This document shows, one piece after another, positions 39,013-53,141 of a stretch of 64,000 nucleotides of DNA. Below the pieces are notes generated by a model. It saw only the letters and a list, made by a program, of their open reading frames with translations. It searched no databases and had not been told where the DNA came from. How positions within the stretch are numbered: the stretch's first letter is position 1; each line of letters starts with the position of its first letter. The DNA comes from Candidatus Latescibacterota bacterium (GTDB lineage: Bacteria > Latescibacterota > UBA2968). A program made the position numbers and the translations under genes. The stretch is from positions 1,856,001-1,920,000 of the forward strand of contig OZ244960.1 of NCBI GenBank assembly GCA_965222605.1. Direction: 5' to 3'.

Positions 39013-41718
39013 ATGGCCGATTCTGTCGCACCAGGTACATTTCGCGATACCGATCCCATCGAAACCGAAGAATGGATCGAATCCCTGGCTTATGTCCTGC
39101 AACGCGGTGGGCCAGAGCGCGTGCGCTATTTGCTCGACCGCCTCGAACAAGAAGCCCAGGAAAGTCTGAGCGTTGACATTCCCTTCGCATCCCATACACC
39201 TTATGTCAACACCATCCCGCGCGACAAGCAACTGCCCTATCCGGGTGACCGAGAAATTGAGCGCCGCATCAAAAGTCTCGTGCGCTGGAATGCCATGGCT
39301 ATGGTTACCCGCGCCAACAAAGAAGCCGATGGCATTGGCGGTCACATCTCCACCTTTGCATCGGCTGCCACGCTATATGAAGTGGGTCAAAATCACTTCT
39401 TCAAAGCACCCAATGGCGATTTCTCCGGAGATCAGGTCTTCTTTCAAGGCCATGCTTCACCCGGCATGTATGCCCGCGCCTTTCTCGAAGGCCGTTTGAG
39501 CACCGAATACCTCGAAAACTTCCGCCGAGAACTCCGCAATCCCGGCGGCCTGTCTTCCTATCCACACCCTTATCTCATGCCCGACTTCTGGCAATTTCCC
39601 ACCGTCTCAATGGGACTTGGCCCACTCATGGGCATCTACCAGGCCCGCTACAACCGCTACCTCGAAGACCGCGGCCTCAAATCGACTCGCGATTCCAAAG
39701 TCTGGGTCTTCGTTGGCGACGGCGAAACAGACGAACCCGAAACCCTCGGCGCCATTAGTCTGGCAACCCGCGAACAACTCGACAACCTCATCTTTGTGAT
39801 CAATTGCAACCTGCAACGCCTCGACGGTCCCGTGCGCGGCAATAGCAAAATCATTCAAGAACTCGAACAAGTCTTTCGAGGCGCTGGCTGGAATGTCATC
39901 AAAGTTATATGGGGTGACGATTGGGACGCACTTCTCGATAAAGACACCCAGGGCCTGCTTCAGGAACGCATGGAAGAAGTCGTCGATGGTCAATACCAGA
40001 AATACACCGTCGAATCCGGCGAATACATCCGCCGCGACTTTTTTGGCACCCATCCCGACCTGCTCAAAATGGTCGAACACCTCTCGGACGAACAACTCCA
40101 AAAATTGCGTCGCGGGGGTCACGATCCCGAAAAAGTGTACGCCGCATTTAAAGCCGCTGTGGAACACAAGGGCGCACCAACTGTTATCCTGGCCAAGACC
40201 ATTAAGGGCTATGGCCTGGGCGAAGCCGGCGAAGGCCGCAACATGACCCACCAGCAAAAAAAGCTCGAAGAAGACGAGATGCGCGAATTTAAGCGGCGCT
40301 TTGACATCCCCATCTCCGATAGCGAAGTGGGCAAAGCACCCTTTTATCGTCCCCCCGACGACAGCCCCGAAATGCAGTATTTGCTACAACGCCGACGCGA
40401 CCTCGGCGGCTATTTGCCCAGCCGAAGCGTTCGGGCCAAACCTATCCAAGCACCCTCACGCGACGTATTTGACGAAGCCTTCAAAGGTACAGGTGACCGC
40501 CAGGCCTCTACAACAATGGCTTTTGCACGCCTGTTTGCCAAACTCGCCCGAGACAAAGACATCGGCAAACTACTCGTCCCCATCATCCCGGACGAAGCCC
40601 GCACCTTTGGTATGGATTCCCTCTTTCGGCAACTCGGCATCTACTCGCACATGGGGCAAATATACGAACCCGTTGACGCGGGCAACATCAGCTACTATCG
40701 AGAAGCGCAAGACGGCCAAATCCTCGAAGAAGGCATCAACGAAGCCGGTGCCATGTCCTCATTCATCTGCGCTGGCACAGCTTATGCCACGCACGGCGTC
40801 AACACCATCCCATTCTACATCTATTATTCCATGTTCGGTTTCCAGCGCGTGGGCGACCTCATGTGGTTGGCCGGCGATATTCGCTGCAAGGGCTTTCTAT
40901 TGGGCGGTACAGCCGGGCGCACCACACTCAACGGCGAAGGTCTCCAACACGAAGATGGGCACAGCCACATTCTGGCCTCATCCGTTCCCAATTGTATCGC
41001 CTACGATCCGGCTTATGCTTACGAAATTGCCATCATCATCCAGGACGGCATTCGACGCATGTACCAGGAACAAGAAGATGTTTATTATTACATAACCCTG
41101 GGCAATGAAAACTACGAACATCCCCCCATGCCCAAAGGCGTTGAAGAAGGCATTGTCAAAGGCATTTATCCGCTCAAGACGCACGAAATGCAACAGGGCC
41201 AGCACAAAGTTCAGCTCTTTGGCAGTGCATCCATCCTCCGCGAAACCCTGCGTGCGCAAGAAATTCTCGCCGCCGAATACAATATTTCCGCCGACGTGTG
41301 GAGCGCCACCTCATACAAGGAATTGCGACGAGACGCGCTTGAAGCTGAGCGGTGGAACATGCTACACCCAACGCGGCGGCGAAAAAAGCCGTATATCGTC
41401 AAAGTGCTCGAAAAAACCGATGGCCCAATAGTCGCCGCATCCGATTACATGAAATCCCTGCCCGAAATGATCCGCCCCTGGGTACCCGAAGATATGACCG
41501 TACTCGGCACAGATGGATTTGGGCGCAGCGACACGCGCCAGGCTCTGCGCCGGCATTTTGAAGTTGACGCCGAGTGCATTGCTGTGGCCGCGCTTTACGC
41601 CCTGGCCAAACAGGGCAAAATCAAACGCGAACAAGTCGCCACAGCCATCGACGAACTCGGCATTGATCCGGCGAAAGTCGATCCCGTATCGGCAGGCCCC
41701 ATCACGACGTATTATTAG
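39013..41718 (+). CDS. aceE: Pyruvate dehydrogenase E1, homodimeric type
   Basis: DPIETEEW, GGHIS, GDGETDE, NCNLQRLDGPVRGN, LGTDGFGRSD. Confidence 0.97.
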   Translation: MADSVAPGTFRDTDPIETEEWIESLAYVLQRGGPERVRYLLDRLEQEAQESLSVDIPFASHTPYVNTIPRDKQLPYPGDREIERRIKSLVRWNAMAMVTRANKEADGIGGHISTFASAATLYEVGQNHFFKAPNGDFSGDQVFFQGHASPGMYARAFLEGRLSTEYLENFRRELRNPGGLSSYPHPYLMPDFWQFPTVSMGLGPLMGIYQARYNRYLEDRGLKSTRDSKVWVFVGDGETDEPETLGAISLATREQLDNLIFVINCNLQRLDGPVRGNSKIIQELEQVFRGAGWNVIKVIWGDDWDALLDKDTQGLLQERMEEVVDGQYQKYTVESGEYIRRDFFGTHPDLLKMVEHLSDEQLQKLRRGGHDPEKVYAAFKAAVEHKGAPTVILAKTIKGYGLGEAGEGRNMTHQQKKLEEDEMREFKRRFDIPISDSEVGKAPFYRPPDDSPEMQYLLQRRRDLGGYLPSRSVRAKPIQAPSRDVFDEAFKGTGDRQASTTMAFARLFAKLARDKDIGKLLVPIIPDEARTFGMDSLFRQLGIYSHMGQIYEPVDAGNISYYREAQDGQILEEGINEAGAMSSFICAGTAYATHGVNTIPFYIYYSMFGFQRVGDLMWLAGDIRCKGFLLGGTAGRTTLNGEGLQHEDGHSHILASSVPNCIAYDPAYAYEIAIIIQDGIRRMYQEQEDVYYYITLGNENYEHPPMPKGVEEGIVKGIYPLKTHEMQQGQHKVQLFGSASILRETLRAQEILAAEYNISADVWSATSYKELRRDALEAERWNMLHPTRRRKKPYIVKVLEKTDGPIVAASDYMKSLPEMIRPWVPEDMTVLGTDGFGRSDTRQALRRHFEVDAECIAVAALYALAKQGKIKREQVATAIDELGIDPAKVDPVSAGPITTYY

Positions 41719-41754: not shown

Positions 41755-44700
41755 ATGAACACAGTTGACCGGCCAAACAGAGACGCGCTCAATAGTGCGT
41801 TGGACATCTACCGCGACGCCATGCGCCCGTTTATTGTCCGATGCCTGAAGAAGATTCGAGGCACACAGGTCGAAGATGTGATACGCAACGCGTTAAATGA
41901 CCGGCAGGCGGAGCAGTTCAGCCAAAACCTGCGTCAGAACGATAATATTGAAGCTGCTATAGACATCGATGAGTTCCCATTGCTCATCAGTAGAAACTGG
42001 CGCGACATTTTCTGGGAGCAGTTTGATGGGGAAATGACCGTGCAGAATAGGCTATGGCTGATTAAGGAGGCACGGGACAAAGCAGCGCATCCCGGGCAGC
42101 AGGATATGGACGCAGAGTACGTCCGAACCAATCTGTATCAAATCGTCGATGTGCTCGACAAAATCAATGTACCGACACAGAAGCAGGCAGTAGAAAAGAT
42201 CAGGGATCAACTCGTCAACCCTGCCAGTCAAAGCGATCTTGCTATCGCACCGGCACAGGAGCAGAGCGAACCCACAACGCAACCCTCCCGTTCAAGTGGC
42301 AACCTCACACCCTGGCGCGAAGTGATTCGACCCAATACAGATGTTCAGCAGGGAATTTTTCAGGAAGCAGAGTTTGCAGCAGACTTGCAGCAGGTATATG
42401 ATGGACGCGCCAGTGCCACAAATTACGGCAACCCGGTCAGTTTCTTCAATCACACGTATATCACCCCAGGCATCCGCACATTACTGGTAAACACGTTAAA
42501 GCGGCTTAGCGGCAATGGTGGCGATCCAGTTATCCAAACCAAAACGGGCTTCGGCGGAGGCAAGACCCACAGCCTGATCGCGCTCTATCACCTGGTGAAC
42601 AGCACCGATGCCTTGACCAATCCTACTGGAAATGGGCAATCCGAGCAGACCTACAATGAAATACACGGCTTGATGGAAGAGGCTGGGCTGGACACAAGCA
42701 GCGGTATTCAGGCTCGCGTCGCCGTGCTCGATGGGACGTATCTTTCATCCACCGATACAACAAAGACCAGAGAAAAGGACGACCCGCTAAATACACTGTG
42801 GGGGATGATGGCTTACCAGTTGGGTGGACAGGAGGCTTACGACATCGTAGGTCAAGCCGCACGCCAAGGCACAGCACCCGGCGGTGCTCAACTCGATCAG
42901 CTATTCGAACATGTCGCACCCTGTGTCATTCTTATTGACGAACTTGTAGCGTATGTACGCAATGCTGAAAGCGCACAGGACAACATTTACACCTTCGTCC
43001 ATGCACTCACCCAATCTGTCCGCAGGAACGACAAAACTGCTCTGGTTGTAACCCTGCCCGAAAGCAGCATTGAGGCGGGAAGCGATGCCGGTATGGAAGC
43101 CCTCAGTCGGCTTGAGCACCTCCTGGGTCGCATCGAAGCCGTGTGGGAACCCCTTGAAGTCAACGAGGCATTTGAAGTGGTGCGCCGACGGCTCTTTGGC
43201 AATGTTATAGACGAAGCGGAAAGAGATCGCACCTGCGAAAGATTCTCGAGGATGTACAATTCTCGAGACTACCCTCAAGGAACCAGTGAACAGCGTTATT
43301 TGGAACGCATGAAGGCGTGTTATCCCATTCACCCTGAGATATTCGACCGCCTCTATGAGGACTGGTCTGCTATTCCTCAGTTCCAACGCACGCGCGGCGT
43401 ACTTCGGATGATGGCACATTGCGTCAGCCGCCTGTATCTCAACAGCGATTCTTCTCCGCTGATCATGCCGGGCAATCTGACCTTAAGCGATGCAGCATTG
43501 GCCAACGAATTTGTCAGGTTGCTTGGTAGCCAATGGAGTCCAGTCCTATCTGAGGTAGATAGTGACGGCTCCAGGACCGACAATATAGACCGTTCTTACC
43601 AACGATTTGCCAATGTCGGAGGCGCAGCGCGGCGCATAGCTCGTGCCATATTTCTCGGCAGTTCCACAAGCGGTGCCATGAAGGGTATTGATGCCCGCCA
43701 GATTCGCCTGGGCGTCGTCCAACCCGGACAGGGCGTCTCGCTCTATAACGAAGCCCTCAATCGCATGAGCGGCGACCTCTACTATCTCTACAGCAGCGAC
43801 GACCGGTACTATTTTCACGTAGAGGAAAACCTCAATAAAGTCGTCACAGATCGTGCGGGCGCATTGAACAATAGAGAAATCAACGAACACATAGTCAATG
43901 AAATACAAGAGGCTGTCAGACGTCAATCGCAAGTTATAATATGTCCAGATGATTCCAGTGCTGTGCCCGAATCGGATGAGGTGCGCCTGGTGATCCTGCC
44001 GCCTGACAAACCCCTGCCAAGCAGGTCAAGGGAACGCGACGACGCCACACCAGAGGCATTGCACATCCTCCAGAACCGCGGCGACGCAAGTCGGATTCGC
44101 AGAAACACCCTGCTCTTCCTGACCGCCAAGAATGACGAAATTCGCACCCTGCGCAATGCGGTCAGGCAATATCTGGCCTGGCACTCCATCGTCAATGGCG
44201 CAAATCGGCTCGAAAACCTCTCAGGCGACCGTCTAAGACAGGCCCAAAACAGCATCAGAACAGCGGGATCAGAGATACGGACCTCTCTGGTCAGTGCCTA
44301 CCGCTGGGCCATGGCACCCGTGCAAGATGACCCGCAAAAAGCCGAATACCGAATGAACGAATTGCAGATCAATGCCCAGGATACCGGTGAGATTATCCAG
44401 AGTGCGTTCAATATATTTATCAGAGAAGATGCTCTCGTCGAAAACATATCTCCTTCCGCACTTACCAGTATGCTGAATCAATACGTGTGGAAAAATGAGA
44501 CCTACCGCGACCACATCGATATGGATACCCTGTGGAATATGATGACGAATAATGTTTACATGCATCGTCTGCGGAATAAGGACGTTCTGATAAGATGCAT
44601 TGAGCAAGGCGTGACTGAGCGCGAATTCGGATATGCCGCAAGTCACTATAAAGACGATTACAAGGGTCTCCGTTTTGGCGAACCAATGTCTGATGTGCCA

Positions 44701-45096
44701 ATTATAGCAGATAGCGATTCAGGGCTTTTGGTCAATCCCGAAATGGCCCTACTCATAAAGGAAGAAACACCAGAGGAAGAAACGCCGACGCCAACTGACG
44801 ACACAGAGACCTACACCACCGAAGAACCTACCGAAACCGACCATTCTGTAACACCACCAACACAGCGCGGTCCCAGGCACATCACTGCCACCAAGACGAT
44901 GCAGAGCGATATTTCCCTGGATGATGTCAACCTATTGCGCGAAGAGATTATCCGTAACCTGCGCGACGATGGCGGGGAAATAACCATTAGCATTACCATC
45001 AATGCCAAAAAATTAGATGGCTTCTCTGAAAGTATTGCTCGCTCCGTGCGAGAGAACAGCACCCAGCTTAGTATTGATTTTGAACAAAAGCTATGA
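41755..45096 (+). CDS. Swt1-like HEPN + DUF499 AAA+ ATPase
   Basis: N-terminal ARDKAAH (RxxxxH); PWREV..EFAADL; TGFGGGKTHSL; ILIDELV; YPIHPE; FQRTRGVLR. Confidence 0.88.
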   Translation: MNTVDRPNRDALNSALDIYRDAMRPFIVRCLKKIRGTQVEDVIRNALNDRQAEQFSQNLRQNDNIEAAIDIDEFPLLISRNWRDIFWEQFDGEMTVQNRLWLIKEARDKAAHPGQQDMDAEYVRTNLYQIVDVLDKINVPTQKQAVEKIRDQLVNPASQSDLAIAPAQEQSEPTTQPSRSSGNLTPWREVIRPNTDVQQGIFQEAEFAADLQQVYDGRASATNYGNPVSFFNHTYITPGIRTLLVNTLKRLSGNGGDPVIQTKTGFGGGKTHSLIALYHLVNSTDALTNPTGNGQSEQTYNEIHGLMEEAGLDTSSGIQARVAVLDGTYLSSTDTTKTREKDDPLNTLWGMMAYQLGGQEAYDIVGQAARQGTAPGGAQLDQLFEHVAPCVILIDELVAYVRNAESAQDNIYTFVHALTQSVRRNDKTALVVTLPESSIEAGSDAGMEALSRLEHLLGRIEAVWEPLEVNEAFEVVRRRLFGNVIDEAERDRTCERFSRMYNSRDYPQGTSEQRYLERMKACYPIHPEIFDRLYEDWSAIPQFQRTRGVLRMMAHCVSRLYLNSDSSPLIMPGNLTLSDAALANEFVRLLGSQWSPVLSEVDSDGSRTDNIDRSYQRFANVGGAARRIARAIFLGSSTSGAMKGIDARQIRLGVVQPGQGVSLYNEALNRMSGDLYYLYSSDDRYYFHVEENLNKVVTDRAGALNNREINEHIVNEIQEAVRRQSQVIICPDDSSAVPESDEVRLVILPPDKPLPSRSRERDDATPEALHILQNRGDASRIRRNTLLFLTAKNDEIRTLRNAVRQYLAWHSIVNGANRLENLSGDRLRQAQNSIRTAGSEIRTSLVSAYRWAMAPVQDDPQKAEYRMNELQINAQDTGEIIQSAFNIFIREDALVENISPSALTSMLNQYVWKNETYRDHIDMDTLWNMMTNNVYMHRLRNKDVLIRCIEQGVTEREFGYAASHYKDDYKGLRFGEPMSDVPIIADSDSGLLVNPEMALLIKEETPEEETPTPTDDTETYTTEEPTETDHSVTPPTQRGPRHITATKTMQSDISLDDVNLLREEIIRNLRDDGGEITISITINAKKLDGFSESIARSVRENSTQLSIDFEQKL

Positions 45097-46016
45097 AATA
45101 CTATTTAACCCGTGGAACCTTTGGAGCGACCGATCTTGAAATCGATGAAAACGACTACGAGGGCTACAACGAATCAAATAAGATACTCACAAGCTGTTTG
45201 TCGTTTGAAAAAAGCTATGAAATCCTGATCTTAAACTACATCGATCTGGAAAATGAGCGGTTATCATGGGCAACGCTTGAGATGGTAAGAGTCGTGCCGA
45301 CAGATGACTTTTTGAACGCGACACTCTCTTTAGATCGGCGAATGATAAACTTTTTATCAACGGCTCGTCTGCATATTGAACATCTTCAAAAACGGGGAGG
45401 AGACTGCGTGAGCGGTCAGTCCATTGAAGATGTCAAAGCTGTCATTAAATGTTTCTGCGATACCGAGAAGGCCAATAAGCCTGAATATAAGTTCATGTGG
45501 GACCTCCGAAATGAGGTGCTGCACTCGAGCTTACCAACTCGCTGGGTCAGTTTCTCTTCAAATCGGACGAACCCGTTTGATGATCCAAATTCAAAATTCG
45601 AGTATTCGCTAAACTTTGGATTGTTGAAATCGTTAGCCATGGGTTTTAAGCAGAACGAACTCGAGTCCATATCAAGCAATGACAAAATCGATTTGATGTC
45701 GGTTAGCAGGGTTTATATGGAATCACTCAGCACTATTCACGTAAAGTTTAGAGATTACATCGCAGAGTCGGTTTCTCAAGCGCGTAGCAAAATAGAAGAA
45801 GCGTTCCATCGGTACAAAAAAGTGTGCGAAGATAACCTAAATGGCCTGTATCTTTTGAAAGTCAATGACTCGTCTGATATTGTAGAAAAGCCATACTTGG
45901 TAGAACAGTCATACTTGTCTTTGTTCCATGATGATCGGCGTATTCAACTGCAAAAAAAGAATCGCAAGCTCGTCAACTTGCGTAATAGCCATGTAACTGG
46001 GAAACAGGCCGAGTGA
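45093..46016 (+). CDS. Hypothetical protein, possible HEPN RNase
   Basis: ATGA-coupled to DUF499 gene; lower GC; DLRNEVLH (RxxxxH). Confidence 0.65.
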   Translation: MKYYLTRGTFGATDLEIDENDYEGYNESNKILTSCLSFEKSYEILILNYIDLENERLSWATLEMVRVVPTDDFLNATLSLDRRMINFLSTARLHIEHLQKRGGDCVSGQSIEDVKAVIKCFCDTEKANKPEYKFMWDLRNEVLHSSLPTRWVSFSSNRTNPFDDPNSKFEYSLNFGLLKSLAMGFKQNELESISSNDKIDLMSVSRVYMESLSTIHVKFRDYIAESVSQARSKIEEAFHRYKKVCEDNLNGLYLLKVNDSSDIVEKPYLVEQSYLSLFHDDRRIQLQKKNRKLVNLRNSHVTGKQAE

Positions 46017-46122
46017 CGAGGGATGAACGGGTATTTCCTGTCAGAAGAATCTATGAAGTATGATAAATTACTATGCCGAAAATCGTGATAACGACTAACC
46101 GCATTAATGAAGAAAGAATGTT

Positions 46123-48930
46123 ATGACTACCCAACCCCAATACCGCCGTAAACTCATCGAAGTTGACCTACCACTGGATGATATTAACCGCGAATCCGCA
46201 CGCGAAAAGTCCATCCGGCACGGCCATCCCTCGACCCTGCACTTGTGGTGGGCACGCCGGCCCTTGGCCACCTGCCGTGCCGTCATTTTTGCCAGTATGG
46301 TAGATGACCCTTCCGAATGTCCCGACGAGTTTCCCGACGAAGAGACGCAACGCATTGAGCGCGAGCGGCTGCATGGGATCATCAAAGAACTGGTTAAGTG
46401 GGAGAATACGGACGAGAGCAAACCCGATGTGAAGGTACTCATAGCGGAAGCGCGGTACGAAATTGCTCGCTCAGTGGCACGCACACACGGCGAAACTGCA
46501 CCTAACGATCCGGCTAAAGTGCTACGCTATCTGAACAACAAGGCTCTACCCATCTACGATCCCTTCGCTGGCGGTGGCTCTATACCCCTTGAAGCGCAAC
46601 GGCTTGGACTACGTGCCATTGGCTCCGATCTCAACCCGGTGGCTGTCCTCATCAACAAGGCATTGATTGAACTTCCACACAAATTCAGAAATCGTCCACC
46701 CGTCAATCCCGATGCTGATTCGATGGGCATGACCGTGGGCAAGGGCAGAAGGGCACAGCGCGTCCCCTGGCGTGGTGTGGCAGGACTCGCAGACGATATC
46801 CGCTACTACGGCCAGTGGATGCGCGAAGAGGCGTATAAACGTATCGGTCATTTCTATCCAATGGTAAAACTGTCCGATGGTAGCGAGGCTACCATAATCG
46901 CGTGGCTGTGGGCGCGAACTGTTCCTTGCCCTAATCCAGCCTGCGGGATAAACATGCCGCTTATGCGAACATTTCAGTTGTCAAAGAAGCGCGGCAACGC
47001 GCACTGGACGAGGCCCATTGTTGATCGAGAAACAAAGACCATATCGTGGATCGTACAGGACAATTCCAATGGCGTTCCAACCGGCACGGTGGATCGCAAC
47101 GGCGCAACCTGCCTCGGCTGCGGCGGCGCGGTAAAGCTGACTTATGTGCGCGAACAGGCGCGGGCCGGTAACATGGACGAGGTTATGACGACGATAGTCG
47201 CAGAAGGCGACCGCAAGCGGCTATTCCTATCGCCCACTGACGAGCATATTCAAGCAGCGTTGAATGCAGAACCAGGATGGCGACCAAGCGGAAACTTACC
47301 TGAAAGGGCGTTGAGCTTTAGAGTACAGGCGTATGGTTTTACGAATTGGTACCAGCTTTTCACGGAAAGGCAATTGACTGCGCTGACTACGTTTAGCGAC
47401 TTGGTGCCTGAGGTTGGCGAACAGGCGATAAAAGACGGGGCTGATGGGGCGTATGCCGATACTATCTGTACTTACCTTGCATTGGCTATTGGAAGAGTTG
47501 CGAACGGGAGTTGTGGATTCACAGTGTGGAACGCCCCTGGAGAAAAAATTGAGGGGGTTTTTTCACGCCAGGCAATTCCAATGGCTTGGGACTTTCCTGA
47601 AGTCAATCTATTTTCAAGCTCAACGAAAAACTGGTTAGACCTCGTTGGTGCGATTAGCAAGGTTGTAGAGCGTCTGCCCGCTGATGTGAACGCAGGAGAA
47701 GCATATCAAGCCGATGCATCTACCACAATTTACGCCGAAAGTGGCCCGGTGATCGTTACCGACCCTCCTTATTACGACAACATCGGCTACGCCGATTTGT
47801 CCGATTTTTTTTATGCGTGGCTACGCCCGATGCTTAGGGACATCTATCCCGACCTATTTGCAGGAATTCTTGTTCCTAAAGATGAGGAAATGATTGCTAC
47901 TCCGTTCCGGTTTGAGAATCCACGCGAAAGATTCGAGGACTTGCTGAATAAGACTTTGCGATTGATACGGGAGCGCTGCTCGCCGGAGTTTCCATCGTCC
48001 ATTTTCTACGCCTACAAGCAACAAGAAAAGAAGAGGGGCGATAGAACATCAACAGGTTGGGAAACGATGCTTACGGCACTCGTCTCGGCTGGCTTTCAAT
48101 TAATCGGCACCTGGCCGATGCGGACTGAGCGTCCAACCGGTGTCAAAGTAGGTGCCAATGTGCTCGCTTCGTCCGTCATCCTCGTCTGCCGTCCGCGTCC
48201 AGATGATGCACCTGTTGCCACGCGCCGTCAATTCTTTGATGCACTGGAGAAAGAACTGCCTGAGGCCCTTGACCAACTCACGCAAGAAGGGCATATCGCC
48301 CCGACCGATCTCGCGCAAGCCGCCATCGGACCAGGGATGCAGATTTACTCGCGCTACAGCCGCGTAGAGACCATAAGTGGCGAGCCGGTGCCGGTGCGCG
48401 AAGCCTTGGCAGCTATCAACAAAGCCATTGCCGATTACGACGAACGGCAAGAGGGTGACCTGGATTCGGAGAGCCGCTTCTGCATGGATTGGCTGAAAAC
48501 TTATGGCTATGGAGAAGGACAATACGGCGAGGCAGAGACGCTGGCACGCGCCAAAAATGTAGCCATCAGCAACTTAAATTTGTACCGCTTGCTCACTGCT
48601 GAAGGAGGCAGGGTGAAATTGCTGCCAATTGACGAGTTTGGAGACAGCCGACCACTGACCCTGGGCAATATGACGGCCTGGGAAGGATGTTTCCGAATGG
48701 CATATCATATGAACCGCGAGGATGGTGGAGGCATTAAAGGCGCGGGCATGGTTGCGCGAGCGATGGACGGCAATGTGGAATCTATCGAACGACTGGCGCG
48801 CATCCTCTACGGACATTATGACCGCAAAGGCGACTCTCAAAACGCGGTTATCTTCAACAACCTCGTCACGTCCTGGCAGGATATTATCACGGAAATGCAG
48901 AATGAAGGTCAAAGAACGCTGGAGATATGA
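46123..48930 (+). CDS. DUF1156 adenine DNA methyltransferase with Zn ribbon
   Basis: KLIEV, LHLWWARRPL, DPFAGGGSIPLEA, CPNPAC/CLGC, TDPPYYDN. Confidence 0.92.
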   Translation: MTTQPQYRRKLIEVDLPLDDINRESAREKSIRHGHPSTLHLWWARRPLATCRAVIFASMVDDPSECPDEFPDEETQRIERERLHGIIKELVKWENTDESKPDVKVLIAEARYEIARSVARTHGETAPNDPAKVLRYLNNKALPIYDPFAGGGSIPLEAQRLGLRAIGSDLNPVAVLINKALIELPHKFRNRPPVNPDADSMGMTVGKGRRAQRVPWRGVAGLADDIRYYGQWMREEAYKRIGHFYPMVKLSDGSEATIIAWLWARTVPCPNPACGINMPLMRTFQLSKKRGNAHWTRPIVDRETKTISWIVQDNSNGVPTGTVDRNGATCLGCGGAVKLTYVREQARAGNMDEVMTTIVAEGDRKRLFLSPTDEHIQAALNAEPGWRPSGNLPERALSFRVQAYGFTNWYQLFTERQLTALTTFSDLVPEVGEQAIKDGADGAYADTICTYLALAIGRVANGSCGFTVWNAPGEKIEGVFSRQAIPMAWDFPEVNLFSSSTKNWLDLVGAISKVVERLPADVNAGEAYQADASTTIYAESGPVIVTDPPYYDNIGYADLSDFFYAWLRPMLRDIYPDLFAGILVPKDEEMIATPFRFENPRERFEDLLNKTLRLIRERCSPEFPSSIFYAYKQQEKKRGDRTSTGWETMLTALVSAGFQLIGTWPMRTERPTGVKVGANVLASSVILVCRPRPDDAPVATRRQFFDALEKELPEALDQLTQEGHIAPTDLAQAAIGPGMQIYSRYSRVETISGEPVPVREALAAINKAIADYDERQEGDLDSESRFCMDWLKTYGYGEGQYGEAETLARAKNVAISNLNLYRLLTAEGGRVKLLPIDEFGDSRPLTLGNMTAWEGCFRMAYHMNREDGGGIKGAGMVARAMDGNVESIERLARILYGHYDRKGDSQNAVIFNNLVTSWQDIITEMQNEGQRTLEI

Positions 48931-49307
48931 GTGTGAAACACGATAGCAGTTCAACAACGCCCTTCGCCCTGAAGTACCAGCTTGAGCAGGATATCCGTCC
49001 GTTCAATCGGGATAGCGTGCGCAACTTACCAAAAGATCGTTCAGGCGTGTACGCAATGTGGCTTCCCATCGGTGACGAAGGCGATTACGACTGTTTGTAC
49101 GTCGGCATGTCTCGGGTCTGTGTGCGGCAACGCCTCTTGCAGCACCTCTCCGATGAAGACAATCCCGAACTTCGACGCCAGCTTCGCATGTTCCGCGACA
49201 TCGTCCAGTTCTCAGCAGCATTTACCCAGGGTGTGCAACAGACTCGTGCGCTGGAGGCCTTGGTCATCCATGACTGGCAACCAGAAACGAATAGGATCCA
49301 CAAGTGA
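48927..49307 (+). CDS. Small GIY-YIG nuclease
   Basis: SGVY...LYVGMS...RQRLLQH...LEALVI...PETN; ATGA overlap with methylase. Confidence 0.8.
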   Translation: MSVKHDSSSTTPFALKYQLEQDIRPFNRDSVRNLPKDRSGVYAMWLPIGDEGDYDCLYVGMSRVCVRQRLLQHLSDEDNPELRRQLRMFRDIVQFSAAFTQGVQQTRALEALVIHDWQPETNRIHK

Positions 49308-49388
49308 ACGGTGGACACAGCCTGAGAGAGGTGAGGAAGTGAAGGTAGGATCGGTGCCTGAGTATCCTATCAAGACAAATGGCAGTAC

Positions 49389-49445
49389 AAAAAAATAGAC
49401 GCCCCTTGCGGAGCGTCGGGCCAACGATACTATCGTTGGGGTAGT
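49389..49445 (-). ncRNA. Putative double-hairpin small RNA, copy 1
   Basis: ACUACCCCAACGAU-AGU-AUCGUUGG CCC GACGCUCC-GCAA-GGGGCGUC UAUUUUUUU. Confidence 0.65.
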
Positions 49446-49452
49446 AAAAGAA

Positions 49453-49480
49453 AATCTACTAAAATATGTCATTCCGTCAA
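49453..49480 (-). promoter_or_regulatory. Promoter of sRNA copy 1
   Basis: TTGACG-16nt-TAGATT. Confidence 0.6.
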
Positions 49481-49492
49481 AAAAAGTTCTAT

Positions 49493-49549
49493 AATAAAGA
49501 AACGCCCCTTTCGGGGCGTCGGCCCAACGATACTACTCGTTGAGGTGGT
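49493..49549 (-). ncRNA. Putative double-hairpin small RNA, copy 2
   Basis: ACCAC CUCAACGA-GUAGUA-UCGUUGGG CC GACGCCCC-GAAA-GGGGCGUU UCUUUAUU. Confidence 0.65.
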
Positions 49550-49555
49550 ATGATA

Positions 49556-49584
49556 ATAATACTCAACGTAATATAATAAGTCAA
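49556..49584 (-). promoter_or_regulatory. Promoter of sRNA copy 2 (divergent from NYN gene)
   Basis: TTGACT-17nt-TATTAT. Confidence 0.65.
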
Positions 49585-49619
49585 TATTTGTTTCACTTTT
49601 TTTCTGGCAGGAGAGGCCA

Positions 49620-50243
49620 TTGATACAGCGAGTGTCGGTGTACATTGACGGGTTCAATCTCTACTACGGCCTCAGATCCAAGGGCTGGCGGCGTTACTAC
49701 TGGCTTGACCTTCGTCGTCTGGCTGAGAAACTGCTAATCCCTGACCAGCATTTGGTGGCGGTCAGGTATTTTACCGCTAAGATTCTGCATCAGACCGACG
49801 ACCCAAAAAAAAAGAGACGGCAGAATACCTACCTGGAAGCACTGGCTACGCTTCCAGACCTACACATCCATTACGGTTACTACCTTTCAAAGAACAGAAC
49901 CTGCTCGCAATGTGGCGCGACCAGGCAGACCTACGAGGAAAAAATGACAGATGTAAATATTGCCGTTGAGTTACTCAGCGACGCTCAGGATGATGCTTTC
50001 GATACGGCAATCATCATCTCTGGCGATAGTGATTTGTCAGGCCCGATAAGTTCTGTCTGCCAACGTTACCCAAAGAAACGGGTAATTGTAGCCTTCCCGC
50101 CAGAACGCAGTTCTTTCCAGTTGCAGCAGATGGCAACTGCATATTTTACCATAAGCCGCAAGAAACTCAGTGACAGTCAATTACCGGATCGGATCACCAA
50201 GACTGATGGCTACGTCCTCAGCAAGCCTCTGAAATGGCGTTAA
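49620..50243 (+). CDS. NYN-domain (LabA/DUF88, PIN-like) ribonuclease
   Basis: YIDGFNLYY, EEKMTDVNIA, ISGDSDL acidic motifs intact; CxxC insert; AGGAGAG RBS before TTG. Confidence 0.92.
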   Translation: MIQRVSVYIDGFNLYYGLRSKGWRRYYWLDLRRLAEKLLIPDQHLVAVRYFTAKILHQTDDPKKKRRQNTYLEALATLPDLHIHYGYYLSKNRTCSQCGATRQTYEEKMTDVNIAVELLSDAQDDAFDTAIIISGDSDLSGPISSVCQRYPKKRVIVAFPPERSSFQLQQMATAYFTISRKKLSDSQLPDRITKTDGYVLSKPLKWR

Positions 50244-50254
50244 TGACAGAACCT

Positions 50255-50310
50255 AAAAAAGAAACGCCCCTTTCGGGGCGTCGGGCCAACGATACTATCG
50301 TTGGGGTGGT
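50255..50310 (-). ncRNA. Putative double-hairpin small RNA, copy 3
   Basis: ACCACCCCAACGAU-AGU-AUCGUUGG CCC GACGCCCC-GAAA-GGGGCGUU UCUUUUUU. Confidence 0.65.
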
Positions 50311-50316
50311 AGAAGA

Positions 50317-50344
50317 AATCTACTTAAGTATGTAATTTCGTCAA
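50317..50344 (-). promoter_or_regulatory. Promoter of sRNA copy 3
   Basis: TTGACG-16nt-TAGATT. Confidence 0.6.
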
Positions 50345-50463
50345 GAAAAAGTTCTATTGGCGAATCGAAATTTGGCACGCAAGAATGCAATGACATAAAG
50401 TGGTAATATTCTTACATTTTATATTCCTTATGTCTATACCCCGTTGCATAGAAAGGAAATCTT

Positions 50464-51714
50464 GTGGCAACTGAATTCAAACTACCCGATCTCGGCGAAG
50501 GTGTAGAAGCCGGCGATGTTGTCGGCGTACTCGTTGCCGAGGGCGACACTGTTGAAATCGATCAGGGCGTGGTCGAACTCGAAACCGACAAAGCCCTCGT
50601 CGAAGTACCCAGCAGTGTTGCTGGCACCGTCACAAAAATACACATTAGTGCCGGAGACCGCGTGCCCGTGGGCAGCTTATTGATCTCTGTTGAAGAAGAC
50701 GAAAAATCCGTCCCGACAGCCCCTGAGCCGGAAGCCGAAGCACCCGCACCAAAAGAAGAAACCCAAGTTGCCGAAGCACCCGCACCAACGCCTTCCAGGC
50801 CACCTGCCCCCACATTCAACGGCGACCCCATTCCCGCAGCGCCATCCACGCGGCGGCTCGCGCGAGAACTCGGCGTAGATCTCACCCAGGTCGCTGGCTC
50901 TGGACCCGGTGGACGCATCTCACAAGACGATATCAAAGCCGCTGTACGCAACCGGCAAACAGGTGGTTTCGCACCAACAGCACCCGTCGAATTGCCCGAC
51001 TTCTCGAGATGGGGCAACATCGAACGCCAACCCCTCAGCAAAGTTCGGCAGATTATTGCAAAAAACATGAGCCAGGCCTGGCAACAGGTGGCTCATGTCA
51101 CTCAATTTGATCGCGCAGACGTCACAGATCTCGAAGCATTTCGGCAGCGCAACAAAGAAAGAACCGAAGCTTATGGGGCCAAACTGACGCCGACCGTCCT
51201 CGCGCTAAAAGCAATCATCACCGCGCTTAAAACCTTTCCGCAATTCAACGCCAGCCTCGATGCCGGAGCCAATGAGATTATTCTCAAGCACTACTATAAC
51301 CTCGGCATCGCCGTTGACACCGAGCGCGGCTTACTCGTTCCCGTCATCAAAGACGTCGATCGCAAAGACATCCTAAAATTGGCTCTCGAACTCGGCGACA
51401 TCAGCAACCGCGCGCGCACCAACAAAATTGGCCTCGACGAATTACAAGGCGGCACATTCACCGTCACCAACCTGGGCAGCCTGGGCGTGGGCGAATTTAC
51501 CCCCATTGTCAATCACCCCGAAGTTGCAATTATGGGGCTCGGGCGTGCCAGAGAAGAAGCCACCGTGCGCGAAGGGCGCATCGAACCCCGACTCATCATG
51601 CCTCTGGCATTGTCTTATGATCACCGCGTTATTGACGGCGCCGACGGTGCGCGATTTATGCGAAAAATCGTCGATGCCCTCGAAAACCCAGAACTCATGC
51701 TCATGGGCGGATAA
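50464..51714 (+). CDS. aceF: Dihydrolipoamide acetyltransferase E2
   Basis: LETDKA lipoyl site, APSTRRLARE, LSYDHRVIDGA. Confidence 0.93.
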   Translation: MATEFKLPDLGEGVEAGDVVGVLVAEGDTVEIDQGVVELETDKALVEVPSSVAGTVTKIHISAGDRVPVGSLLISVEEDEKSVPTAPEPEAEAPAPKEETQVAEAPAPTPSRPPAPTFNGDPIPAAPSTRRLARELGVDLTQVAGSGPGGRISQDDIKAAVRNRQTGGFAPTAPVELPDFSRWGNIERQPLSKVRQIIAKNMSQAWQQVAHVTQFDRADVTDLEAFRQRNKERTEAYGAKLTPTVLALKAIITALKTFPQFNASLDAGANEIILKHYYNLGIAVDTERGLLVPVIKDVDRKDILKLALELGDISNRARTNKIGLDELQGGTFTVTNLGSLGVGEFTPIVNHPEVAIMGLGRAREEATVREGRIEPRLIMPLALSYDHRVIDGADGARFMRKIVDALENPELMLMGG

Positions 51715-51728
51715 ACTGGAGAAATCAC

Positions 51729-53141
51729 ATGGCCGAAACGCACAAAACCGATCTCCTCGTCATAGGCGGCGGTCCCGGCGGATATACAGCGGCCTTTCGC
51801 GCTGCTGACCTGGGTCTGCATGTCACCCTCGTCAATGCCGACGACAACCTCGGTGGCACCTGCTTATTGCGCGGGTGCATCCCATCCAAAGCCCTGCTCC
51901 ACGTTGCCGAACTCATCACCGAAGCCAGTGAAGCCAGAACTTATGGCCTCACCTTTGGCGATCCCAAAATCGATCTGGACGCCCTGCGTAGCTGGAAAGA
52001 CAACATCATCACCCGCCTCTCGACCGGTCTATCTGGCCTGGTGCGCCAGCGCAAAGTCACCCACCTGACGGGCTACGCGCAATTCGAGAATTCGCAAAGC
52101 GCGTCCATCACAGGTAATGGGGATATCGACCGCGTCGATTTTGAACACGCCATCATCGCCACGGGCTCACGCCCTGTCGTCCTCCCAATTTTCGCGCTCG
52201 ACACCCCGCGCATTTTGGACTCTACAACAGCGCTCGATCTCGACGAAATACCCAAAAGCCTTCTCGTCATTGGCGGAGGCATCATCGGTCTCGAACTCGG
52301 CAGTATTTATGCCGCATTGGGAAGTGCCGTCACAGTCGTCGAAATGACCGACACCCTCTTGCCCGGCACCGATCCCGATCTGGTCAAACCCCTCGAAACC
52401 CGATTGCGTCAGGCATTCAGCGCCATACACACCCGCACGCGCGTCACGCATATCGAAGAAGTCAATACCGGTATTGAAGTACACTGCGAAGGCGTAGGAT
52501 CGAAAATATCTGAAATATTCGACCGCGTCCTCCTCTGCATTGGCCGACGCCCAAATACGGATAATATTGGCCTTGAAAACACGGACATTGAACCCGATGA
52601 CCTCGGGTTCATCGAAGTCGATTCACAGATGCGAACAAACGATCCCCGCCTCTTTGCAATTGGCGACGCTATCCCAGGCCCCGGCCTTGCCCACAAAGCC
52701 GCGCACGAAGGCAAAATCGCCGCCGAAGTTCTCGCCGGTGAACCCGTGTCTTTTGACGCACTCATTCCCTCAGTTGTGTACACCGATCCCGAAATTGCAT
52801 GGGTGGGCCTGACCGAAACCGACGCCCGCGAACAAAACCGAAAAATCGATGTCGTACGCTTCCCCTGGGCTGCCCTGGGCAAAGCGCATGCAATTGGGCG
52901 CATCGAAGGCCAGACCAAGCTCATTGTCGATCCCTATACCCAGCGCGTGCTCGGCATGGGCATCGTGGGACCAAACGCGGGCGACCTCATCGCCGAAGGC
53001 GCGCTTGCCATTGAAATGGCTGCTGTTGCCGAAGACATTGCCCACACCATTCATCCCCACCCCTCGCTTGCCGAATCCATCGGCATTGCCGCTGATATTC
53101 ACCTCGGCTCCGCGACCGATGTGTACATGCCTAAAAAATAG
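51729..53141 (+). CDS. lpdA: Dihydrolipoamide dehydrogenase E3
   Basis: GGGPGGY, GGTCLLRGCIPSK, GGGIIGLE, HPHPSLAE. Confidence 0.95.
   Translation: MAETHKTDLLVIGGGPGGYTAAFRAADLGLHVTLVNADDNLGGTCLLRGCIPSKALLHVAELITEASEARTYGLTFGDPKIDLDALRSWKDNIITRLSTGLSGLVRQRKVTHLTGYAQFENSQSASITGNGDIDRVDFEHAIIATGSRPVVLPIFALDTPRILDSTTALDLDEIPKSLLVIGGGIIGLELGSIYAALGSAVTVVEMTDTLLPGTDPDLVKPLETRLRQAFSAIHTRTRVTHIEEVNTGIEVHCEGVGSKISEIFDRVLLCIGRRPNTDNIGLENTDIEPDDLGFIEVDSQMRTNDPRLFAIGDAIPGPGLAHKAAHEGKIAAEVLAGEPVSFDALIPSVVYTDPEIAWVGLTETDAREQNRKIDVVRFPWAALGKAHAIGRIEGQTKLIVDPYTQRVLGMGIVGPNAGDLIAEGALAIEMAAVAEDIAHTIHPHPSLAESIGIAADIHLGSATDVYMPKK

Follow-up and report, generated by a model that had tools for sequence, protein, structure and literature searches.

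The window analysed here, a 64,000-nucleotide (nt) stretch of the genome of Candidatus Latescibacterota bacterium (contig OZ244960.1, positions 1,856,001 to 1,920,000), contains a gene for an NYN (PIN-like) nuclease of the HEC-09 type with three related small RNA (sRNA) genes around it, and our results point to an RNA-controlled nuclease module that has not previously been catalogued. The protein is already known as HEC-09; the sRNA and its pairing with NYN are new to Rfam 15 and to the literature that we searched. Judged from sequence, the sRNAs form a family with good covariation support and members in at least seven phyla, and HEC-09-type NYN genes have in this RNA their dedicated genetic partner. 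We show how the units are built, on which strand their structure holds, that selection acts on both structure and promoter, and that the linkage to NYN is independent of position and orientation. Transcription, binding of the RNA by the protein, toxicity of NYN and a role in defence are what we infer beyond this.

Anatomy and conservation of the small RNA genes

The NYN gene lies on the plus strand (49620..50243), encodes 207 amino acids and retains its predicted catalytic residues. Three related minus-strand units are present around this intact gene, where the initial annotation had placed them, and each is about 100 bp long. Copy A (~50252-50344, with a 64-nt core at 50255-50318) is convergent with the 3' end of NYN, copy B (~49490-49584, core 49493-49556) is divergent from NYN, and copy C occupies ~49385-49485 (core 49390-49453). 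Read along the minus strand, a unit consists of -35 and -10 boxes, an A start 6-8 bases on, a C-rich tail, hairpin 1, a short linker, a GC hairpin and a T-run. The promoters that had been described for these units, with a TTGAC(G/T) -35, a spacer of 16-17 nt and a TAGATT or TATTAT -10, were recovered by a consensus scan at all three, as TTGACG-16-TAGATT in copy A (50317..50344, a position that agrees with the fixed -35/-10 geometry of the whole family) and in copy C (49453..49480), and as TTGACT-17-TATTAT in copy B (49556..49584). The same scan placed terminator-like sites on the minus strand at 50282-50263 (A), 49520-49501 (B) and 49417-49398 (C). Between 48800 and 50600 it returned 10 promoter-like sites, against 2.0 +/- 1.3 in shuffled sequences, and 5 terminator-like sites, against 1.6 +/- 1.3; three minus-strand promoter-like and three terminator-like sites coincided exactly with the units. 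A promoter-like site on the plus strand (49550-49577) overlaps the copy B promoter and could serve NYN.

The predicted transcripts, whose ends were set from the positions of promoter and T-run and not measured, run on the minus strand over 50256..50310 (A), 49494..49552 (B) and 49391..49445 (C). That of copy A begins with the 5' tail ACCACCCC and continues through hairpin 1 and the GC hairpin to a U-run. Copies A and C are 91% identical (85% between their 34-nt promoter parts), and copy B reaches only 69% without gaps because one base has been inserted; this extra base falls in the apex of hairpin 1. The differences between copies noted in the initial annotation can be seen in the sequences: the loop is GAAA in copies A and B and GCAA in copy C, there is one U-G pair in the stem of hairpin 1 of copy B and one in hairpin 2 of copy C, and the copy B promoter has diverged in sequence from those of A and C. 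On the minus strand the two hairpins fold at -25.2 (A), -26.1 (B) and -24.6 (C) kcal/mol, with z scores of -5.2, -4.5 and -4.4; on the plus strand the z scores are weaker for A (-2.9) and C (-2.25) and similar for B (-4.1).

Across the family the RNA comprises a single-stranded C-rich 5' tail (ACCNCCCC), a hairpin 1 with a conserved GAUAGYAUC apex, a conserved GGSCC linker, and a second hairpin with an invariant GACG...CGU base that is followed by U's. In an alignment of 77 sequences, 98.0% of 1230 pair cells were paired and 12 of the 16 pairs had changed on both sides. None of 500 shuffled alignments reached the observed pairing values, and when the partners were slid by 1-3 columns just 37-49% of the cells paired. 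G-U cells numbered 101 and A-C cells 4, an excess which means that the helices hold on the modelled strand and would break on the other. A second set, from metagenomes, gave 98.4% paired cells, compensatory changes in 8 of 16 pairs and 73 G-U against 10 A-C cells, in an alignment that was fitted to the covariance model and obtained with a search pattern that fixed the hairpin apex. The unpaired parts are also conserved, namely the ACC-CCCC tail, the apex and the linker, and so is the base of the terminator stem; this primary sequence is kept while the identity of NYN drops to 53-60%.

The promoter is conserved in a similar way. A sigma-70 match of at least 9/12 was found in 69 of 88 distinct units, compared with 10 of 88 in shuffled sequences and 10 of 88 on the opposite strand; the -10 ended at a single fixed position in 59 units, and the -35 was exactly TTGACA in 53. 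Selection on transcription, which had been argued from the copy B promoter, is supported by this conservation among the 88 units, and covariation, the strand bias of G-U pairs and this fixed distance together back the view that the units are self-contained sRNA genes on the minus strand.

With the covariance model, copy A scored 80.4 bits (50249-50314), copy B 65.4 bits (49487-49553) and copy C 75.3 bits (49384-49449). No unit was found elsewhere in the 6,338,376-bp genome by pattern search, blastn-short or the covariance model, and this is therefore the sole locus. Scatter over the genome independent of NYN was looked for and is absent from the source genome. The genome has three PF01936 matches, and the unit stands at only one such locus, beside the HEC-09-type NYN. 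A candidate fourth copy at genome position 3358150 (28.9 bits) was rejected: its hairpin 1 is unpaired, it is a plain terminator and there is no NYN nearby. A repetitive extragenic palindromic (REP) element, a miniature inverted-repeat transposable element (MITE) or another dispersed repeat was likewise rejected, as all three copies lie at one locus in 6.34 Mb and 33 of 61 related genomes are without the unit. Chance and dispersed repeats are excluded as the origin of the units. An integron attC site was judged unlikely by eye, hairpin 1 being 19 nt long and the unit having both promoter and terminator; no search for an integrase was made. Hairpin 1 was also considered as a mimic of an anticodon loop; the anticodons that it would imply, AGC and AGU, are to our knowledge not usual in bacteria. 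The initial annotation had proposed a comparison with Rfam, and no Rfam 15 family matched: the top score in the window was 20.3 bits (E 0.43) against a gathering score of 54, and nothing was matched at the RNA in six related loci.

The NYN protein and its linkage to the RNA

The NYN protein matched Pfam NYN (PF01936) with an E value of 2.1e-12 (48.2 bits, cut-off 24.2), and the PADLOC HEC-09 profile with an E value of 1.8e-90 (300 bits) over its full length, residues 3-207 aligning with profile positions 2-203 of 203. Across 54 homologues, eight residues (D10, N13, E107, K108, T110, D111, D128 and D136) do not vary, and D138 reaches a conservation of at least 90%. The AlphaFold2 model has a predicted local distance difference test score (pLDDT) of 92.7, and its best Foldseek matches were 2qip and the MARF1 NYN domains 6fdl and 5yaa. 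The catalytic assignment of the conserved Asp residues comes from the comparison with MARF1 in the HEC-09 preprint (Payne et al., 10.1101/2024.01.29.577857), where HEC-09 is presented as an Hma-embedded, MARF1-like NYN protein and a single-protein candidate. The initial annotation knew of no described NYN system of this form. For the protein this did not hold, as it is the known PADLOC candidate HEC-09; for the RNA it did, given the result with Rfam 15. Literature searches, which excluded supplements, found no publication that pairs NYN with an RNA antitoxin or names this RNA.

To follow the association beyond the window, relatives of NYN were scanned with one genome per species, which gave 117 stretches, and the best 80 of the 117 were used as NYN loci. 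By record title they belong to Latescibacterota, Chloroflexota, Pseudomonadota, Binatota, Thermodesulfobacteriota and Hydrogenedentota. A hidden Markov model (HMM) built from the three window copies alone found the sRNA beside 63 of the 80 loci. The covariance model, which was made from 77 distinct copies partly from these same loci, so that its own training members match by construction, gave some match in 76 of the 80 and a match of at least 40 bits in 72. The matches of at least 40 bits were always on the strand opposite NYN. A single copy upstream of NYN was the commonest arrangement (53 loci); two copies stood upstream in 3 loci, one copy stood on each side in 5, and 11 had the sRNA downstream only, in 1, 2 or 4 copies. 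Among the 8 loci with no match of this strength, 4 have a weak match, 1 has an in-frame stop and 1 lies at a contig end. A seventh phylum is represented by the plasmid pTHEOS01 of Thermus oshimai JL-2 (NC_019387.1), whose NYN is 57% identical and whose sRNA (59 bits), beside THEOS_RS12940, lies ~60 nt upstream of NYN on the opposite strand, with the promoter TTGACA-17-TTTAAT. The association with NYN that the initial annotation had suggested examining by collecting flanks, building a covariance model and scoring co-occurrence is therefore found at 72 of 80 NYN loci and in seven phyla.

Two of these loci have features of their own. In pTHEOS01 the module (locus L264, 3320-4061) adjoins an HmaA-like helicase of 1161 amino acids and an IS4 transposase, and its host is a cultured thermophile. 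In a Dehalococcoidia genome (locus L030, 3659-4043), four complete sRNA genes stand in tandem, ~104 nt apart and each with its own TTGACA promoter, downstream of NYN and convergent with it.

A scan of metagenomes with the RNA pattern extended the comparison to 80 loci, from at least 120 stretches, holding 81 sRNA sites. Among the matches listed, 48 of the 81 sites have an HEC-09-type NYN within 1 kb, 12 have 900 nt or more on either side and lack NYN, and 21 are too near a contig end to judge. The orientation relative to NYN varies in this set: among the matches listed, the sRNA is on the opposite strand in 27 of the 48 NYN-linked sites and on the same strand in 21, where the NYN match follows it at a distance of 39-70 nt (39-57 nt in all but one of the 21). 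The order in the same-strand loci is promoter, sRNA, hairpin with a weaker T-tract (mean 4.5 T per 9 nt versus 6.1), ribosome-binding site and NYN. A quick tree of NYN puts the same-strand loci together on one side of a branch (10 rows, approximate likelihood ratio test (aLRT) 94), and the downstream arrangement needs about five changes.

Orphan copies and mode of action

The sRNA is not always accompanied by the nuclease gene. It was present in 28 of 61 related genomes and missing from 33. When the 28 sRNA loci were fetched, 10 had a full NYN, 5 had NYN fragments only and 13 had no NYN within 1.5 kb. Among the matches listed, 12 of the 60 informative metagenome sites are without NYN, and the neighbours of such orphans include genes for HmaA-like helicases, a DUF1156 methylase, YhcG, Cas3-like and DUF3800 proteins. 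In four genomes of a sister genus the sRNA is present and HEC-09 NYN is nowhere in the genome; these orphans hardly differ from the NYN-linked copies found in that genus, and their flanks are unrelated. The sister-genus orphans (loci L125, L126, L127 and L133, at about 1500-1575) share a syntenic position upstream of an ABC-transporter permease gene, on whose strand they lie, and one of the four genomes has two sRNA copies there, 280 nt apart. Damaged NYN genes were also observed: in-frame stops occur in 3 of 78 genome loci checked (L056, L081 and L082), and about ten metagenome loci (L158, L159, L167, L171, L180, L181, L205, L176, L183 and L191) have only a partial NYN profile away from contig ends and keep the sRNA, although assembly errors are possible there. 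RNA without nuclease is thus common and nuclease without RNA rare, as one would expect if the two were antidote and poison; such asymmetric loss, in which NYN decays first and the sRNA stays, fits an antidote better than a cofactor.

The site of the window itself varies among relatives, one of which has a single copy B with NYN, another a single copy of A/C type with NYN, and a third a solo unit without NYN. In addition, one contig of an RNA-labelled sequencing run joins 49412 to 50278 and skips 865 bases that comprise copy B and NYN; this contig represents a variant in the population whose one sRNA gene is a solo hybrid. The solo units and this junction indicate that recombination between the repeated sRNA genes deletes NYN and leaves the sRNA behind.

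The RNA also occurs in one phage lineage. In four IMG/VR contigs (L135-L138) the sRNA, at 55-59 bits, stands directly before ParB-DNA-methyltransferase genes and there is no NYN. One of the four contigs, the single one scanned against PHROGs, encodes primase, RuvC, portal, protease and major head proteins. In L135 the sRNA is at 2043-2111 and the methyltransferase genes are two in tandem; no obvious sigma-70 promoter was seen for the sRNA of this lineage. No match to the phage-borne copy was found in records of cultured phages. NYN itself was found on no viral contig by a single-protein search and at two loci by a profile search. A decoy antitoxin would fit the phage-borne sRNA.

We give an even chance to the reading that the sRNA is a type III-like RNA antitoxin or inhibitor, which binds the NYN RNase and restrains it in trans. 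Each unit would have a sigma-70-type promoter and an intrinsic terminator of its own and would yield a structured RNA of ~55-60 nt; this RNA would bind the NYN protein in trans and hold the nuclease inactive, extra copies would raise the RNA dose, and loss of the RNA supply, or a phage trigger, would free the RNase. A new class of RNA-protein toxin-antitoxin or abortive-infection module, with NYN held by the ~55-nt trans sRNA, orphans serving as immunity to incoming modules and phage copies acting as decoys beside anti-restriction methylases, is a proposal that we make tentatively, leaning slightly against it.

Several points weigh against an RNA that restrains NYN in trans. The sRNA, with its two strong hairpins, looks stable and not labile like classical antitoxins, and its units are not a tandem array processed from one transcript. 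The conserved orphans in NYN-free genomes could point to a separate function of the RNA. The RNA-labelled runs, four in number, exist as contigs only, in which strand, ends and level are not readable and DNA carry-over is possible; two runs with the label sponge metagenome contain contigs over the NYN gene that are 90-95% alike, and one 377-nt contig holds only the sRNA core with unrelated flanks, and these RNA-library contigs do not demonstrate transcription. According to the main text of the preprint, HEC-09 in E. coli protected against none of the tested phages, and apparent toxicity upon induction with isopropyl beta-D-thiogalactoside (IPTG) is given there for HEC-03 and HEC-04 only (10.1101/2024.01.29.577857). 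Finally, in the opposite-strand loci the -35 of the sRNA is only a few bases from the ribosome-binding site of NYN, and the NYN mRNA must therefore start in or beyond the sRNA gene. No conserved sigma-70 match was seen on the NYN strand between the sRNA -35 and NYN in these loci, and the genes upstream of NYN are co-oriented with it both in the window and in Thermus; for these reasons the NYN mRNA in the window probably crosses the sRNA genes head-on. An added antisense or transcription-interference effect in the opposite-strand loci is accordingly possible.

This promoter arrangement, the probable crossing and the co-oriented upstream genes are also what would favour a control of NYN purely in cis, without protein binding, by an antisense or head-on block of type I-like character where the strands are opposite and by a leaky-terminator leader or attenuator where they agree, the latter with the weaker T-tract of the same-strand loci in its favour. 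We consider such control unlikely, because it needs two different mechanisms for one conserved RNA. The existence of same-strand loci rules out an antisense-only role for them, and the existence of opposite-strand, downstream and arrayed copies means that a leader-only role cannot account for those. Unpaired nucleotides and a stem base conserved across phyla are not required of cis-antisense RNAs, and the downstream copies, the arrays of up to four, and the orphans in NYN-free genomes and in phage lack a cis target. In a weak test, no special complementarity of the sRNA to the NYN translation start was found over 60 loci (mean z -0.28; cognate -30.45 versus non-cognate -30.2 kcal/mol). Pairing of the C-rich tail with the NYN ribosome-binding site was rejected on the same weak test, the sites being AGGAG-type and not G-runs and the duplexes of the 60 cognate pairs no better than shuffled or non-cognate ones. 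One conserved trans-acting RNA explains all of the arrangements, and action in trans fits better than a purely cis element. The sRNA might instead act with the nuclease as a cofactor, scaffold, activator or preferred substrate in an active ribonucleoprotein effector, without inhibition. The orientation-independent linkage, the sequence conservation and the rarity of NYN without sRNA would be the same in that case, and NYN/PIN-like RNases such as Regnase-1 recognise stem-loops. This is nevertheless distinctly unlikely in our judgement: the constant 5' tail offers no programmable guide, orphan sRNAs with intact promoters outlast an NYN that decays first, and a phage gains nothing by carrying an activator of a host nuclease.

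That the units are cassette boundaries or insulators without RNA function, either terminator-plus-promoter modules or recombination sites for swaps of accessory genes, might be argued from copies A and C, which are direct repeats flanking NYN, from the 49412-50278 junction that removes copy B and NYN, and from the relatives with one unit and NYN, or a solo unit, at the same site. Recombination between repeated genes is, however, expected whatever their function. A terminator has no need of hairpin 1, but this hairpin shows covariation and has a conserved apex; both the excess of G-U cells and the constant geometry of the promoter speak for an RNA that is transcribed and selected; and the unit is specific to one NYN subfamily, standing at just one of the three PF01936 loci of the genome. 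Such elements are therefore a very improbable explanation. A conventional trans-acting regulator of host genes, an sRNA that does no more than hitch-hike alongside NYN, receives a slightly smaller probability still. The orphans conserved in four genomes before the ABC-transporter permease gene would suit it, but a shared host regulon leaves the spread over seven phyla together with NYN unexplained, and the sRNA is missing from more than half of the related genomes (33 of 61).

Genomic setting and known systems

The NYN-sRNA module lies in a defence island of the window (~41755-50360) that consists of HmaC, an open reading frame (ORF) of 307 amino acids, HmaB, a small GIY-YIG-like ORF and the module itself. 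HmaC, an AAA+ ATPase (DUF499; 41755..45096, plus strand), matched PADLOC HmaC with an E value of 7.4e-250, and HmaB, a DNA adenine methylase (46123..48930, plus strand), matched PADLOC HmaB with an E value of 7.9e-293 and also Pfam DUF1156. No HmaA helicase was found among the upstream ORFs scanned. The 307-amino-acid ORF (45093-46016, plus strand) fills the gap between HmaC and HmaB, overlaps the HmaC stop and has no Pfam, NCBIfam or PADLOC match. The small ORF of 126 amino acids (48927-49307, plus strand) overlaps the HmaB stop and has weak GIY-YIG-type matches (excinuclease Cho, E 2.4e-5; PADLOC PDC-S14, E 1.7e-6); of two relatives, one keeps it with 92% conservation and the other has a truncated form. 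A pyruvate dehydrogenase (PDH) E1 gene (39013-41718; PDH_E1_M, E 1.7e-101) borders the island upstream, and past the island the ORFs at 50464-51714 and 51729-53141 look E2- and E3-like by eye from their translations, no family search having been made. If both are E2 and E3 genes, the island splits a PDH gene cluster.

Among the closest described entities is HEC-09 itself, of which the window NYN is a full-length member. HmaB and HmaC stand directly upstream of the module, so that the gene is embedded in Hma genes as HEC-09 is. The difference is that HEC-09 has been described as a single protein, one that did not protect against the phages of the panel. The main text of the preprint contains none of the terms 'non-coding', 'ncRNA' and 'small RNA', and the preprint states that ~150 bp of upstream sequence was included in HEC constructs where possible (10.1101/2024.01.29.577857), so that the sRNA may or may not have been in the HEC-09 construct. 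An overlooked conserved RNA partner could explain the null result obtained with HEC-09, and it has consequences for the way in which the system ought to be cloned and assayed. Thermus oshimai JL-2 (pTHEOS01) offers a culturable host that carries the module, and the occurrence of the sRNA on either strand, on either side of NYN, as an orphan and in phage constitutes a natural experiment that separates action in trans from action in cis.

Among type I systems with a nuclease-like toxin, SymE/SymR has a short cis-encoded RNA opposite the 5' region of the toxin gene, as is the case here. The NYN-linked sRNA, in contrast, stays clear of the NYN start, can also be found on the NYN strand, downstream of NYN or as an orphan, and is conserved across phyla. 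In the window the sRNA may overlap an NYN mRNA that arises by read-through; among the matches listed, 21 of the 48 linked metagenome sites are same-strand. The module shares with ToxIN, CptIN and TenpIN an endoribonuclease gene beside a small structured non-coding RNA, a phage-defence context and a variable RNA copy number, and in one clade of the family the promoter, RNA, terminator and nuclease gene lie on one strand as in ToxIN-type loci. The antitoxin repeats of ToxIN-type systems are 34-45 nt long, tandem and cut from one precursor. The nuclease studied here has an NYN (PIN-like) fold and does not belong to the ToxN/AbiQ family, and the units of the window are separate genes of ~100 bp on the opposite strand, not tandem repeats upstream on the same strand. 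By its toxin fold, and because its RNA does not come as a tandem array that is processed, the NYN-sRNA module falls outside ToxIN, CptIN and TenpIN.

Like the ToxIN-type systems, two others are close working analogues of what we propose. AbiF (Abi_2) with the non-coding RNA RCd22, the abiF RNA motif, provides a precedent for an element that acts as a leader or as a free sRNA depending on the locus; its protein family and RNA family are both different, and the abiF motif is upstream on the same strand. In AvcID, a single sRNA, AvcI, binds and inhibits the deaminase AvcD, and transcription shut-off removes AvcI. The effector there is a deaminase and not an RNase, the RNA is unrelated, and AvcI has been shown to be labile. 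AvcID counts as a type III system even though its toxin has no relation to ToxN, and its scheme, an sRNA that binds and inhibits the protein and is removed by transcription shut-off, is the model proposed here for NYN and its sRNA; if it is true, the NYN/PIN-like RNase would join the few protein folds that are governed by RNA antitoxins.

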